DNA from: a virus
Lineage: Duplodnaviria; Caudoviricetes
DNA: 64,000 nucleotides
Virus record (IMG/VR): IMGVR_UViG_3300020046_005360
Reading direction: 5' to 3' (one strand)
Made by a program: the position numbers and the translations under genes. Shown one piece after another: positions 5,883 through 53,445 of the stretch. The stretch's first letter is position 1. The number at the start of each line of letters is the position of its first letter. Under the pieces are notes generated by a model. It saw only the letters and a program-made list of their open reading frames with translations. It did no database searches and was not told where the DNA came from.

Positions 5883-6236
5883 TTAACGACTTAAGATTGC
5901 TTTAATAAACGGGAAAATACTTCCCACAGGAATATTCATTTTTACAGAAGTATTACCTTCTTTACCTTCTTCTGCATTAAGTTCAAGTTTATACTTTGCG
6001 AATTTAGGTCCTAATGAAGTCATAAGACTGTTTTGAAGTGTTTTAATTTCTTCATCAGATAGATTATAAATCATATTTCCTTCTGGATTGACAGGAACTA
6101 ATTCAAGATTAATTCCATTTTTATCAACATCTAAATTGACTTGGAATGTTTCTCCATTTAGGTTGACTTTATATTGTAAATCTCCTCCATCTTCTTCTAA
6201 CATTAATTGTCTTAATGATGTGTTTATATGCGCCAT
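5883..6236 (-). CDS. hypothetical protein, possibly virion-associated (N-terminal LRQLMLE motif)
   Basis: Preceded by the late-type motif ATATTTATA at 6250-6258. Confidence 0.7.
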   Translation of the reverse strand: MAHINTSLRQLMLEEDGGDLQYKVNLNGETFQVNLDVDKNGINLELVPVNPEGNMIYNLSDEEIKTLQNSLMTSLGPKFAKYKLELNAEEGKEGNTSVKMNIPVGSIFPFIKAILSR

Positions 6237-6257
6237 ATTATTATTTTTGTATAAATA

Positions 6258-6875
6258 TTAATTATAATAGTCTAATCTATTTCTTTTTATTTCTCTATTT
6301 ACTTTACTACACAAAGGTTGTAGGTTAGAGAAATGGTTCAATTTATAAATATCTTCTTCTGTATTTATAGAACTTAAGGGAATTATATGATCTATATCCC
6401 AAGTTTTATTAAATTCGAATATCCCATCTTTAGGATAACCTCTATTATTCCAAGTCATCCAAGATTCGAATTTAGATTCTAAATGTAATTTAAATTCTTC
6501 AAATGAACAACATAATATATCTTCAGTACATTTTGATTTAATACAAGATCCATTTAAATAATTTTTGAAACTACTAAGTATTGATGATCTCATATTTTGT
6601 TTTAATTTATATAAATGATCATTTTCCCTTTTATTTTTTTGATAATCATTATGATGTCCCGGATTAAGTTTATTCCATTTTATATTAGTTTTTTTAAAAT
6701 AATCCCTATTTATATTATAATATTCATTATTATATATTTTAGTAATATCCTTTTTACTATCATTATGTTTCTTTTTACAATTTCTGCATTGAAAATTAAA
6801 TCCGTCCTTTTTGGCTCGATTAATACAAAAATCACTAAATTCTTTTAACTCACCACACTTACTACATTTCTTCAT
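6258..6875 (-). CDS. HNH-family homing endonuclease with N-terminal Zn finger
   Basis: CxxC...CxxC; FESWMTWNN...WDIDHIIP...LNHFSNLQPLC. Confidence 0.85.
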   Translation of the reverse strand: MKKCSKCGELKEFSDFCINRAKKDGFNFQCRNCKKKHNDSKKDITKIYNNEYYNINRDYFKKTNIKWNKLNPGHHNDYQKNKRENDHLYKLKQNMRSSILSSFKNYLNGSCIKSKCTEDILCCSFEEFKLHLESKFESWMTWNNRGYPKDGIFEFNKTWDIDHIIPLSSINTEEDIYKLNHFSNLQPLCSKVNREIKRNRLDYYN

Positions 6876-6975
6876 ATCAAATAAAAAGGAGAAATTAAAG
6901 AAAACTACCTCGTCCGTAGTGAATCCTTAAAATCTCCTATATAATTTCTTTATTGGTAGGACGAGTACCGTTTGA
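6876..6975 (-). ncRNA. structured 5' leader RNA with kissing loops (copy 1)
   Basis: GGUA[CUCGUCC]UACC and ACUAC[GGACGAG]GUAGU hairpins with complementary loops; outer AGGAGA/UCUCCU stem; same architecture at 33682-33780. Confidence 0.7.
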
Positions 6976-7002
6976 TATAAATATATAAGGAGAATGGAAA
7001 CA

Positions 7003-18959: not shown

Positions 18960-19865
18960 CTATTTATTATTTATAATTCTTGAACAAAGACCTAGAAAAC
19001 ATATTTGTTTATCTGGACTAGTAGTACTTTGGAATGCGCTTTCTGCAATATACCAAGGATCAATTGAATTATTTGACCAATCATCTAAACGTTCCGATAG
19101 AAGTACGTATAATTCTGTATAGTCACGAAGTTGAAGATCAATTACTATTTTTCTTATTTTATTTAGATTTTTTGATTTAAGGTATCCAATTAATTCATCA
19201 CTTACTTTGCTTATATTTGAAGATGAATCAGTAACAATCAATTCGCCTGATTTAGAAAATGATTGTAATTTGATTAATGTTTGACGATTATCAGGATAGC
19301 AAATATTTACCACTTTAGCTATGTCTTTTAAATCGTATTTTATTTGTTCTTGTTCAAGAATATCTTTACATTTTTTAGCTAGTTCTTGTTTTGTAGGAGG
19401 GTGTAATTCATATCTCTCTAATCTAGATTGAATCGGTTCCAACATTCTTTCGAAATAGTTACAAGTAAATATAAAACGAGTATTTAATGAAAATGTTTCA
19501 ATTGTATTACGTAATGCGGATTGAGCATTTGCTGTAAGGAAATCTGCTTCATCTAATATAATAATTTTAACAGGTTTAAATGATGCAGATGAAGCAAATG
19601 AATTTACTTTTTCACGAATAGTTTCGATACCATTTTCACTTGATGCATTTATATACAGAGAATCGCAATCAATACAGTTTACTATCAACTTAGCACTCGT
19701 AGTTTTACCACAACCAGCTTTACCACTAAGAATTATATTGGGTATTGTTCCTTCTTGTATCCACCTTTCTAAATCTTTTCTATAATTTTCATTACCTATA
19801 TAGCCATCCAGAGTGTTAGGACGATAACGTTCAGTCCAGAGATAATGCATTGGGTTCATTTCCAT
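18960..19865 (-). CDS. clamp loader large subunit (RFC/T4 gp44-like AAA+)
   Basis: [27 protein letters not shown]. Confidence 0.9.
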
Positions 19866-20115
19866 AATCTAATTTATCTTTTTTAATATCACGATTTACT
19901 TTACTACATAATGGTTGAAGGTTTGTGTAATGATTTAATCTTATTACATCTTCAATACTTTTAGCTTCACTAATAGGTATTTTATGATCAATATCCCAAT
20001 CAAAATTTAATTCGCCATTATATTTACCTTTATTATCCCAAGTCATCCAAGGTTCAAATTTATTCTCTAAATATACGAAGAATTCTTCAAAAGTACAACC
20101 TAATATTTCATAAGT
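19831..20115 (-). pseudogene. N-terminally truncated HNH homing endonuclease
   Basis: Open frame RTYEILGCTFEEF...FEPWMTWDN...WDIDHKIP...LNHYTNLQPLC; the Zn-finger half is missing. Confidence 0.75.
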
Positions 20116-32211: not shown

Positions 32212-32712
32212 TTAAAATATTGATGTATTAAGGGTTAAAATAGGTAATTTTTTACCTCTTGATTCTAGTAAATATACAGATTCTTGAAATATTTTTTCTA
32301 ACCCCTGATTAAAACCCATAACTGAATTTAAATTCTTCCCTGGTTCCTCTTTTTCATAGAAAAAAGATATAGTTTCTTTACTACATTCGGTTTTAATTAC
32401 CATATCAGGTAAGTGATATCCATTTTTAGCCATTCTCCTTAGTAATCTGAATCCAAGAATACCTTCTACTATAATATGATAACCAGAGTAGTAATACTCA
32501 TTCACATCTCGTTCTAATATATTTAATGCTTCATCTTGATCATACATTCTAATATAATCATCTGATATAAATAAAGTTCTATCGTCTAATTGTTTAGATA
32601 ACTCTTTTGCTATAGTAACCTTTCCACTTTTTGTAGCTCCGATCACAAATATTAAAGTAAGTGGTCTGCAATAATCAACAATTTTTGATGTTATAAGTGA
32701 TTTAGGATCCAT
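32212..32712 (-). CDS. P-loop kinase-like protein
   Basis: IGATKSGKVTIA Walker A-like; IIVEG. Confidence 0.7.
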   Translation of the reverse strand: MDPKSLITSKIVDYCRPLTLIFVIGATKSGKVTIAKELSKQLDDRTLFISDDYIRMYDQDEALNILERDVNEYYYSGYHIIVEGILGFRLLRRMAKNGYHLPDMVIKTECSKETISFFYEKEEPGKNLNSVMGFNQGLEKIFQESVYLLESRGKKLPILTLNTSIF

Positions 32713-33070
32713 ATTTACTAATTATACCTAACTGGAAATATTCTTTAAAATCATTAAAATTAGGATTATGATTTGTTATAAAAATTCTGTCACCTATTTT
32801 ATAATCATATGTAGTTCCTTGTCTAGTAAACACTAAATTGTTATTAATTATATACAAACCTTCCGTGAAATCAGCGATATTCTGCTCGACTAAAGGAGGT
32901 TGTTGGGGTGTGGTGTTATAAGGAATTAATGCATTTAAAGCGTCTCTCCTGCGACCGCAGCCACAGTCTTCAATACCTAATATATCAGCAGTTTTTTCTA
33001 CCAGAGTCGAAACTCCGGTAGCTTTAAAAACTTTTTCTAATGTGTCTCCTAATCCAACAGATTCTGCCAT
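32702..33070 (-). CDS. hypothetical protein (GLGD...CGC motif)
   Basis: GLGDTLEKVFKATGV...DCGCGRRRDALN. Confidence 0.7.
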   Translation of the reverse strand: MAESVGLGDTLEKVFKATGVSTLVEKTADILGIEDCGCGRRRDALNALIPYNTTPQQPPLVEQNIADFTEGLYIINNNLVFTRQGTTYDYKIGDRIFITNHNPNFNDFKEYFQLGIISKYGS

Positions 33071-33681
33071 TCTATTTTATTTTTCTTTATTTCACGATTT
33101 ATCTTACTACAAAGAGGTTGTGTGTTATTATATTTTAACAATTTTAATAACTCTTCCTCATTTTTCGCGCTACTCATAGGTATTATATGGTCAATATCCC
33201 AACCATAATTAAATTCTCCATTATATTTGCCATAATTTTCCCAATTCATCCATTCTAAAAATTGAGATTCTATATATTCTTTATAAAATGTAATAGAACA
33301 ATTTAAAACATCAATAGTTTTGGATTTTCTTTCAAAACCCAAATTATTAATACTATTTCTTATTTGTATTCCAGAAGTTGTTTTTAATCTAAAAAGAGGA
33401 TCAGTATCATATTTATTTTTACGATATATCTTTTCTTTTTGTTTTAAATCATCTTTATTATCTTTATACCATTGTTTATGATATTCAGTTCTATCATTTT
33501 CTTCTTTATATGTTTTAGAATAAGATAGAATCTTATCTCTATTTTTAATATAATATAAAGAAGTATTTTCTTTTACACAGGACTTACAATGAATACTCAA
33601 ACCATCTTCTCTAGCTCTATTTTTATTGAATTCATTTAAAGGTTGGATTTTCTTACATTTAGTACATATTTTAGTTTCCAT
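33049..33681 (-). CDS. HNH-family homing endonuclease
   Basis: True start METKICTKC at 33681; WDIDHIIP...NTQPLC. Confidence 0.85.
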   Translation of the reverse strand: METKICTKCKKIQPLNEFNKNRAREDGLSIHCKSCVKENTSLYYIKNRDKILSYSKTYKEENDRTEYHKQWYKDNKDDLKQKEKIYRKNKYDTDPLFRLKTTSGIQIRNSINNLGFERKSKTIDVLNCSITFYKEYIESQFLEWMNWENYGKYNGEFNYGWDIDHIIPMSSAKNEEELLKLLKYNNTQPLCSKINREIKKNKIEWQNLLD

Positions 33682-33780
33682 AATACAAAAGGAGAAATTA
33701 AGAGTTGTATCTGGTCCATACAAATTCCTAAAATCTCCTTAAAAATATTTTTATTAAGCAGGACCAGTGCTTATTTACGG
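33682..33780 (-). ncRNA. structured 5' leader RNA with kissing loops (copy 2)
   Basis: UAAGCA[CUGGUCC]UGCUUA and UUGUAU[GGACCAG]AUACAA; AAGGAGA/UCUCCUU stem; covaries with 6876-6975. Confidence 0.7.
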
Positions 33781-33829
33781 ATATAAATATTGAAGAGAAC
33801 AAGAAATATCAATAAACCTTTTGATTCCA

Positions 33830-39550: not shown

Positions 39551-39595
39551 TATAAATATTACTTCCTTAAGCCTCTATTCAGAGGCTTTTATTTT
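39551..39595 (-). repeat. 45-bp GIY-YIG cassette left end (KIKASE* coding, hairpin, late-type motif), copy A
   Basis: 44/45 identical to 53401-53445. Confidence 0.9.
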
Positions 39596-51078: not shown

Positions 51079-51720
51079 TTACTTAATTATTGTTAACAAA
51101 TTTCTTTTAATTTCTCTATTATATTTAGAACATAGAGGTTGATAATTTGAAAAATGACTCAACTTTAAAATTTCTTCCTCAGTAGAACCACTTGATATTG
51201 GGATTATATGGTCTATATCCCAATTTTTATTAAATTCAAGAATTCCATCCTTAGGGTTACCTTGATTATCCCAATTCATCCAAGGTTCGAATAATGATTC
51301 GATATATAATTTAAATTCTTCGAAGGTACAACCTAAAATTTGATATGTTTTAGATTTTTTAGAATAACCTCCCCATTTTAATGAACAGTAAGTTAAAGAT
51401 CTTACGATTTTTGAAATTCTAAATATAGGATCTGTTTGATATTTATTATTTTGTTGAGATTTTATTTCATCCTTATTAGATAGTCTCCAATTTTTTTGAG
51501 TTTCTTGTACTTTTTCTATATTATCGAAATAATATGATTTATTATATTCTCTTAAATATTCTTTCTTACCTTGATTTTTTTCTTGTATATTATCTTTATT
51601 TAACAAGTACCAATCCCCTCTACATTGTTTACAATTATAACTTAAACCATCTTTAGAATTTTTACTCTTACTAAATTCCACTAGTTCTTTATCTACTTTA
51701 CATTTAGTACACGTCTTCAT
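51079..51720 (-). CDS. HNH-family homing endonuclease
   Basis: CTKC...CKQC; WDIDHIIP...SHFSNYQPLC. Confidence 0.85.
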   Translation of the reverse strand: MKTCTKCKVDKELVEFSKSKNSKDGLSYNCKQCRGDWYLLNKDNIQEKNQGKKEYLREYNKSYYFDNIEKVQETQKNWRLSNKDEIKSQQNNKYQTDPIFRISKIVRSLTYCSLKWGGYSKKSKTYQILGCTFEEFKLYIESLFEPWMNWDNQGNPKDGILEFNKNWDIDHIIPISSGSTEEEILKLSHFSNYQPLCSKYNREIKRNLLTIIK

Positions 51721-51836
51721 ATTACTTATTTATTATGCTATAATATACAAAGGAAATTATGTATATCCAAGTATTAGGGTAAAAAAGAGGATAAAATTTA
51801 TCCTCATTGTTTATCATATTTTATTTTTATTTATAT

Positions 51837-52193
51837 TTATATTTTTCTTAGATATTTCGGGTCAATTCTAGTATTACTTCCTTCATCACTTTCAAAAGCT
51901 CCATCATAATATATTCCTTCTTCCCCTTTATCTATATATAAAGAAGCAGCATCTGGTTCCAATTCTAATATATTATCGTACCCGAGTTCATCTAACTCAT
52001 ATTTAGGAACCGCACTACTACTAAATTCATTGTATATATCTCTATCTTGATAATCACCTTTATCTCCACTAAAATGATATACGTCTGTTAATATAACACA
52101 ACGATCCCCATCTTTTACAGGTGATGGATTGTGAACTTTTATTTCAGTAAGTATTCCAGCTAATTCTTGTAATCTTTGTATTTCGTTACGCAT
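51837..52193 (-). CDS. hypothetical protein with RLQELAGI-LTE-IKVHNP leader
   Basis: N-terminus nearly identical to that of 58865..59140. Confidence 0.75.
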   Translation of the reverse strand: MRNEIQRLQELAGILTEIKVHNPSPVKDGDRCVILTDVYHFSGDKGDYQDRDIYNEFSSSAVPKYELDELGYDNILELEPDAASLYIDKGEEGIYYDGAFESDEGSNTRIDPKYLRKI

Positions 52194-53400: not shown

Positions 53401-53445
53401 TATAAATATTACTTCCCTAAGCCTCTATTCAGAGGCTTTTATTTT
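53401..53445 (-). repeat. 45-bp GIY-YIG cassette left end, copy B
   Basis: 44/45 identical to 39551-39595. Confidence 0.9.

Follow-up and report, generated by a model that had tools for sequence, protein, structure and literature searches.

Homing endonucleases need to be expressed under tight limits, and to our knowledge the control of this expression is known only for T4-type phages of hosts that use Shine–Dalgarno (SD) sequences. The plasmids pT181 and pIP501 rely on an antisense RNA whose loop–loop kissing decides whether a leader terminator is formed, and kissing loops are also found in riboswitch expression platforms, as in the guanidine-IV (mepA) riboswitch and in the L5–L13 contact of corrinoid riboswitches. 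In the T4 family, two kinds of device keep the expression of homing endonuclease genes down, namely hairpins in which a promoter is embedded, and terminators (PMC2988022). Inhibitory hairpins of the first kind, whose promoter is a late or a middle one, have been described for I-TevI, I-TevII, I-TevIII, segB and Aeh1 mobE, terminators limit T4 mobE and segF (with about 30% termination at mobE), and the transcripts of T4 segB, segG and Aeh1 mobE are processed by RNase E (PMC2988022).

The element analysed here is a leader of about 110 bases, made of two hairpins with mutually pairing loops, which is found before two mobile nuclease genes of the window, i.e., of the whole 64,000-nucleotide stretch of DNA under study, which comes from a large uncultured phage. 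It belongs among the regulatory leaders of phage homing endonuclease genes, with no Rfam family and no published description found. Indeed, Rfam 15 returned no match, whether at the gathering score or with E relaxed to 10, in keeping with an earlier note on this DNA, which had not recognized a named motif. Full-text searches of the literature brought up no description; the element may be listed among the more than 10,000 candidate viral RNAs, all unnamed, that were catalogued in 2023 (PMC10690425).

Both window copies are read as minus-strand RNA, and the window genes around them all lie on the minus strand. In copy 1, a promoter-like box, TATTTATA, is read at 6976-6983. It is overlapped by the 5' strand of a helix called P0 (6971-6979), which in the minimum free energy fold forms 9 bp with a 3' strand at 6873-6881 that takes in the start codon (ATG at 6873-6875). 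A small 5' hairpin follows, P1 (6955-6969, from sequence and RNAfold), with the 7-nt loop CUCGUCC at 6959-6965, and then an A-rich single-stranded linker (6938-6954). The long interrupted hairpin P2/P3 was located by RNAfold at 6887-6938. It is built from a GGAGA..UCUCC base, a tandem U.U and 7 bp, on top of which sits the apical hairpin P3 (6904-6920), whose loop GGACGAG (6909-6915) is complementary to that of P1. A U-tract of composition U5AU3 (6879-6887) directly adjoins the stem.

The second copy, 27 kb away, has the same layout, with the TATTTATA box at 33782-33789, P1 at 33755-33773 (loop CUGGUCC at 33761-33767, from sequence and RNAfold), an A/U-rich linker at 33740-33754 and P2/P3 at 33690-33739 (from RNAfold); this copy obtains 84.7 bits from the covariance model. 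P3 extends over 33705-33723, and its loop GGACCAG (33711-33717) is again complementary to the P1 loop. The stretch from the stem to the ATG (33679-33681) is a U4-G-U-A-U-U tract at 33682-33690, the weakest U-tract of the family. The earlier note had described most of this anatomy, and it could be confirmed: the P1 and apical hairpins with perfectly complementary 7-nt loops are recovered in both copies by reading, alignment and RNAfold, counting places the loops exactly 43 nt apart in both, and the central C-G/G-C compensatory swap between the copies is real. The conserved interrupted stem reported near the start codon is also present; it stops 14 nt short of the ATG in copy 1 and 9 nt short of it in copy 2.

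P1, P2 and P3 were all obtained by RNAfold in both copies, with z = -3.3 and none of 200 shuffles folding as well. The two leaders are about 79% identical, as compared with 39% for the HNH proteins encoded behind them, so that the non-coding part is the better conserved of the two. One kissing pair alone nevertheless proves nothing, since an unrestricted scan, in which any two hairpins sharing at least six complementary loop bases counted, yielded 17 pairs in the window versus 8-14 in shuffled sequence; further kissing-hairpin leaders are no commoner in the window than in shuffled sequence. The significance of the element comes from a family of 62 members, not from a single pair.

This family was found by a pattern scan, anchored on the two strands of the P2 base, together with a covariance model, a wider search that the earlier note had suggested and that brought 62 real copies from viromes and metagenomes, the majority of them freshwater ones. 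The pattern scan of IMG/VR gave 69 loci, with 48 places being true copies. The metagenome scan added 38 loci, mostly from freshwater lake samples and including two TARA contigs, and the scan of prokaryote genomes added one contig of a metagenome-assembled genome. Among the 65 distinct pattern matches, 62 are real and 3 are due to chance. The loops are complementary in 61 of the 62 real copies, through 6-9 contiguous Watson-Crick pairs that come in 18 sequence versions. The sole real copy with mismatched loops is on a metagenome contig of 1160 nt (L258), where P1 carries one allele and P3 another, and it looks like a natural recombinant or an assembly chimera. Two other copies are decaying or unusual: in one of them (L011:3640-3770, minus strand) the nuclease gene has a stop at codon 3 and the loop pair one mismatch, and the other (L012:5352-5380, plus strand) has a U-tract lengthened to 16 T and an ORF that would begin at TTG. 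When IMG/VR was scanned again with the box, the linker and the U-tract as anchors in place of the P2 base, AT-rich chance matches came up, many of them from giant viruses, and the covariance model recognized no new member among the matches listed.

Covariation was counted on a 42-sequence alignment (A5) fitted to the nested helices only; the loop-loop helix and P0 were not in the model that made it. In this alignment, 98.6% of the cells of the kissing helix are paired, and five of its seven positions show compensatory changes, with up to four pair types each. P3 is 99.4% paired with 4/4 pairs covarying, P1 93.9% paired with 4/4 stem pairs covarying, and P2 97.4% paired overall, its upper part covarying (6 of 12 pairs). 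Double-sided changes affect 22 of the 38 modelled pairs. Over all 38, pairing amounts to 95.8%, against 84.3% after shuffling and 43-50% with slid partners, the shuffle counts overstating significance because the sequences are related. The GGAGA:UCUCC base is invariant in this set by construction of the search pattern. A divergent member reached through the protein route (L189) has GAGGAUU:AAUCCUC in its place, with different but again complementary loops and again the tandem U.U internal loop. The linker is kept at 13-17 nt across the family, which would be about the length needed by P1 to reach the tip of a stack of some 20 bp and would explain the fixed 43-nt spacing of the loops. G.U pairs fit the sense orientation only, and the antisense strand scores about 25 bits in the model, as compared with 77-135 bits for sense-strand copies and 36 bits for the divergent member; an antisense-strand RNA was discarded on both grounds. 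As far as can be read from aligned sequences, the element is thus a conserved, tertiary-folded sense-strand RNA with strong covariation, loop-loop helix included, and the tertiary fold proposed in the earlier note is borne out.

The genes found behind the leader are more diverse than the window suggested. A GIY-YIG/NUMOD endonuclease follows in 43 of the 62 copies, the zinc-ribbon HNH type of the window in 9, an HNH-NUMOD3 protein in 3 and a seg-like GIY-YIG protein in 2. Conversely, when 80 IMG/VR homologs of the zinc-ribbon HNH type seen in the window were examined, only 2 had the leader upstream. The element had initially been presented as associated with HNH genes, and these counts rule out such a restriction: the leader goes with free-standing homing endonucleases at large. 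Even one and the same loop allele, CUGGUCC, is found before three unrelated nuclease families.

In the window itself, cassette 1 (6237-7002, minus strand) extends from the glycosyltransferase stop to the ATG of the next gene and includes the promoter-like box, the leader and a zinc-ribbon plus HNH endonuclease gene of 205 aa (6258-6875, minus strand; phrog_1035, endonuclease VII / HNH type). Cassette 2 (33071-33829, minus strand), from the QueE stop to the next gene's ATG, has the same content, its zinc-ribbon HNH gene (33049-33681, minus strand, 210 aa from the ATG at 33681) being a paralog of the first. Six HNH paralogs are present in the window, and the other four lack the element, as the earlier note had stated; their upstream regions were inspected and the covariance model matches two sites only. 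Upstream of one of these four (gene 51079-51720), at 51760-51845 on the minus strand, doubled TATAAATA boxes are followed by a classical GC-stem terminator with U6, about 65 nt and the ATG; promoter-like box, terminator and nuclease thus come again in this order, without the kissing pair. A truncated HNH paralog, reduced to its C-terminal 90 aa (19858-20115, minus strand), lies directly behind an unrelated small ORF and is probably a decayed endonuclease gene.

The closest complete relative of the window (G001) is 180,524 bp long with terminal repeats, and shares 77% identity in QueE and 64% in the glycosyltransferase. At its cassette-1 site, the glycosyltransferase homolog is separated by 9 nt from the homolog of window gene 5883-6236, with neither leader nor HNH gene. 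At the cassette-2 site (L293), a 56-aa ORF comes after QueE, and after that the counterpart of window gene 32702-33070, again with neither leader nor HNH gene. No copy was found by the covariance model across this whole genome, which is a weak negative. Both cassettes are missing from it as whole units, and comparison of the two genomes indicates clearly that the leader belongs to the insertion in the window, the cassettes being present or absent as units. A GIY-YIG-like endonuclease gene, apparently without leader, lies two genes downstream of the glycosyltransferase in the same relative (L373:121-810, minus strand).

The earlier idea that the RNA travels with the mobile nuclease therefore holds for the two window cassettes, but not throughout the family, as contigs of two types (L058/L061 and L262) have kept box, leader and a U7 tract but have no nuclease gene behind them. 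These nuclease-free copies amount to about 3 of 62, at two distinct sites. Their junction lies just past the U-tract, and a gp32-like single-stranded DNA-binding protein (SSB) gene lies about 90 nt beyond the leader, after a second promoter-like site (L058:2305-2510, minus strand, and L262); a RecA-like gene is present too. The same SSB gene comes directly after the GIY-YIG gene in three contigs (L001, L006, L013) and further downstream in two more (L015, L018). Such a nuclease-free site would be an empty homing site, or else the remnant of a deletion.

Several observations point to the nature of the TATTTATA box. It is invariant in 41 aligned copies, not being part of the search pattern, and a GTTT element about 14 nt upstream of it is conserved in most copies in spite of differing upstream genes. 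Half of its sense-strand occurrences in the window (8/16) are intergenic, versus 11% expected. The six intergenic boxes outside the two leaders precede ordinary genes, four of them at 18-33 nt before the ATG, and in one contig (L042) the same promoter module stands before an SSB gene, with a different leader. Judged from these positions and from its invariance, the box behaves like a native phage promoter. Of note, two TATTTATA boxes of the window lying 14 kb apart (53401-53440 and 39551-39590, minus strand) share a near-identical 25-nt upstream stretch, with one mismatch, and may represent a promoter/operator module that is repeated before ordinary genes.

At the other end of the leader, the long second hairpin and its U-tract look like a terminator. 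The P2/P3 hairpin has a mean ΔG of -17.5 kcal/mol, the 8 nt that follow the stem contain 7 U in 60 of the 65 pattern matches, and the ATG lies 13-14 nt past the stem in 48 of 65. A stable stem with a directly adjoining U-tract is thus present, as U5AU3 in copy 1 and in a weaker form (U4G) in copy 2; in the divergent member L189, the U-tract is poor or displaced. The hairpin departs from the canonical short, GC-rich, uninterrupted form with a small loop, being about 50 nt long and AU-rich, interrupted by two internal loops and capped by an apical loop of 7 nt, and a simple consensus scan for terminators gave none in either leader region.

P0, the pairing of the box region with the start-codon region, varies in length, from 9 bp in copy 1 to 12 bp in most GIY-YIG copies and only 4 bp in copy 2. 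Across the family it is 92.1% paired, with two compensatory positions and mismatches in several copies; the compensatory C-G and A-U changes come from copy 1 and from two other members (L019, L053). Translation initiation in this phage has its own features. An SD-like 4-mer precedes only 5 of the 77 window genes, G is nearly absent from positions -13 to -4, and gene starts have unstructured A-rich leaders, as compared with the U-rich kissing-loop leaders. GGAGA was considered as an SD sequence brought near the AUG, in the manner of T4 gene 38, and rejected, since the genes are SD-less and the spacing is about 19 nt; it is rather a helix clamp than a ribosome-binding site. Such A-rich, G-poor, SD-less starts suggest a Bacteroidota-style initiation signature. 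Among cultured phages, the only relative is the GIY-YIG gene of Flavobacterium phage FL-1 (KY421186.2; L374:790-905), annotated as 'hypothetical protein'. Its leader has a box of the TAnnTTTG type, the Bacteroidota -7 consensus, and a simpler GGAG..CUCC hairpin with U6, without the kissing pair. The SD-less starts, taken together with this link, point to a host among the Bacteroidota; the TAnnTTTG motif is not clearly enriched in the window.

On balance, we consider it probable that each copy is a self-contained cassette, in which a promoter box of phage type and some 100 nt of structured leader precede the ORF of a free-standing homing endonuclease, and in which the leader would act in cis as a brake on the nuclease, through attenuation and/or start-codon occlusion. 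The brake would hold a DNA-cutting enzyme at a low, controlled level. After folding of the small 5' hairpin P1 and of the long interrupted P2/P3, with pairing of their 7-nt apical loops, P2/P3 and the U-tract would form a leader terminator (an attenuator), so that only read-through transcripts would reach the ORF. The contact between the P1 and P3 loops would lock the P2/P3 terminator or speed its folding. In transcripts coming from upstream genes, the box region would pair with the start-codon region as P0 and the AUG would be hidden, whereas transcripts begun at the cassette's own box would lack the 5' strand of P0. Attenuation by a terminator and occlusion of the start are both known from homing endonucleases of the T4 family (PMC2988022), and the simpler hairpin with U6 before the homologous GIY-YIG gene of phage FL-1 is a further precedent. 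The direction in which the kissing contact acts on downstream expression may be either way, as it may promote or hinder termination, and its main effect may be translational. A cis-regulatory leader fits the anatomy, i.e., a promoter-like box, a 5' hairpin, a long hairpin with U-tract and an ATG 9-14 nt further on, better than the options put forward in the earlier note. Against the brake speak the unusual form of the hairpin, the poor U-tracts of copy 2 and L189 and the short P0 of copy 2; moreover, a strong terminator right behind its own promoter looks self-defeating, unless read-through is regulated.

Control may instead be purely translational, without termination, a possibility that we regard as rather unlikely but that has the most to be said for it after the brake. 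The kissing fold, placed 9-14 nt before an SD-less, U-rich AUG, would hinder loading of the 30S subunit and, together with P0, would limit translation to transcripts begun at the putatively late-type box of the cassette itself, in the manner of I-TevI in T4. P0 does take in the start codon and overlap the box, the distance from stem to ATG is short and fixed, the U-rich leaders differ from the unstructured A-rich ones used by window genes, and the T4 paradigm provides a precedent (PMC2988022). However, the 13-14 unpaired nt before the AUG may suffice for initiation without melting of P2, and P0 contains only AU pairs, is reduced to 4 bp in copy 2 and is mismatched in several copies. Translational control also leaves both the U-tract abutting the stem and the pairing of the loops unexplained.

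It seems improbable to us that the leader is a small RNA in its own right, extending from promoter to terminator, with the nuclease gene simply lying behind it. The private complementary loops of such an RNA would also act in trans, through dimers or on nascent copies from the same cassette. The contigs that keep box, leader and U7 without nuclease, with a second promoter-like site before the SSB gene, are consistent with such an RNA, as are the distributions of loop alleles: loops differ between all copies of one contig (the window, L005, L013, L014 and L050/L053/L059), and nuclease genes at least 85% identical bear different loops. Yet the 12 within-contig pairs that all differ (12/12) would be expected about 20% of the time, as estimated from allele frequencies, the few nuclease-free copies are perhaps deletion remnants, and the intramolecular contact should outcompete pairing in trans. 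A related proposal, which we hold to be a long shot, is that the hypervariable loops serve as a private address, the terminated leader RNA acting in trans on the nascent transcripts of its own cassette only. If this were true, each selfish nuclease gene would have its own dose sensor, or a means of excluding like copies during co-infection; it would amount to an intramolecular-plus-trans form of plasmid antisense attenuation, with the alleles forming a natural collection of orthogonal kissing pairs, at least 18 in all.

More doubtful still is an RNA stability or processing element, that is, a 5' protective fold or a site for RNase III or RNase E setting the mRNA half-life. P1 would lie at the extreme 5' end of the transcript if the box is a promoter, the long helix could serve as an RNase III substrate, and transcripts of T4 segB, segG and Aeh1 mobE are cut by RNase E (PMC2988022); nothing specific was found in favour of such a role, for which neither the U-tract nor covarying loops are needed. 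The options raised in the earlier note, an autoregulatory switch that binds protein, a scaffold on which the nuclease would form an RNP, or a small ribozyme, here taken as self-cleaving, appear very unlikely, since, for all the conserved tertiary fold, the tandem U.U internal loop, the conserved A-rich linker and the lack of a known family accounting for the element, one leader and even one allele with identical loops stands before three unrelated nuclease families, a leader site can be nuclease-free, few unpaired positions are conserved, and no self-cleaving ribozyme in Rfam (hammerhead, twister, pistol, hatchet and others) was matched even at E up to 10.

The cis-acting brake would represent an equivalent control device, of different architecture, in a large group of uncultured, mostly freshwater, SD-less phages. 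The mobile unit can comprise a putative promoter and a leader besides the nuclease ORF. The 18 loop-loop alleles on an otherwise constant scaffold provide a clean natural experiment, as well as ready-made orthogonal RNA parts.

How does this leader compare with the systems described so far? Like guanidine-IV and corrinoid riboswitches, it combines two hairpins and a loop-loop contact that would be coupled to a terminator. No kissing-loop riboswitch family in Rfam (guanidine-IV and others) was matched, and, whereas riboswitch loops carry invariant ligand-contacting bases, the loops are here the most variable part, with 18 alleles and no evident conserved pocket.

The likeness to the T-even hairpins would be one of function. 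Both are leader RNAs that act, or would act, in cis before GIY-YIG and HNH homing endonuclease genes (PMC2988022). The T-even hairpins have a promoter box in the 5' strand of a start-occluding helix, and the promoter-like box described here overlaps the 5' strand of a helix that may occlude the start, in which case only box-started transcripts would be translatable. The T-even hairpins are single and simple and sequester an SD sequence, which is not used here (5/77 genes). P0 is instead a weak AU helix closing a three-way fold, and what is most prominently conserved is another pair of hairpins, the covarying 7-bp helix that joins their loops, and a U-tract, with no sequence homology between the systems. 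The T4 mobE and segF terminators (PMC2988022) also consist of a stem directly followed by a U-tract and placed so as to reduce transcription into or through a selfish nuclease gene. They lie within the 5' coding region and have short GC stems with 4-nt loops, whereas the terminator predicted here would be located in the leader and be formed by a hairpin of about 50 nt, the loop of which pairs with that of a hairpin further upstream.

A coupling of hairpin-loop kissing to a leader terminator hairpin, as predicted here, is also at work in the attenuation of pT181 and pIP501, where loop variants, natural or artificial, likewise give orthogonal specificities (cf. PMC3753616). An antisense gene supplying the second loop is not indicated at our locus, given the position of both loops 43 nt apart on one strand, the G.U pattern and the model scores. 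The kissing partner in the plasmids is supplied in trans, by an antisense RNA of its own, whereas one and the same sense-strand molecule carries both loops of the phage leader.
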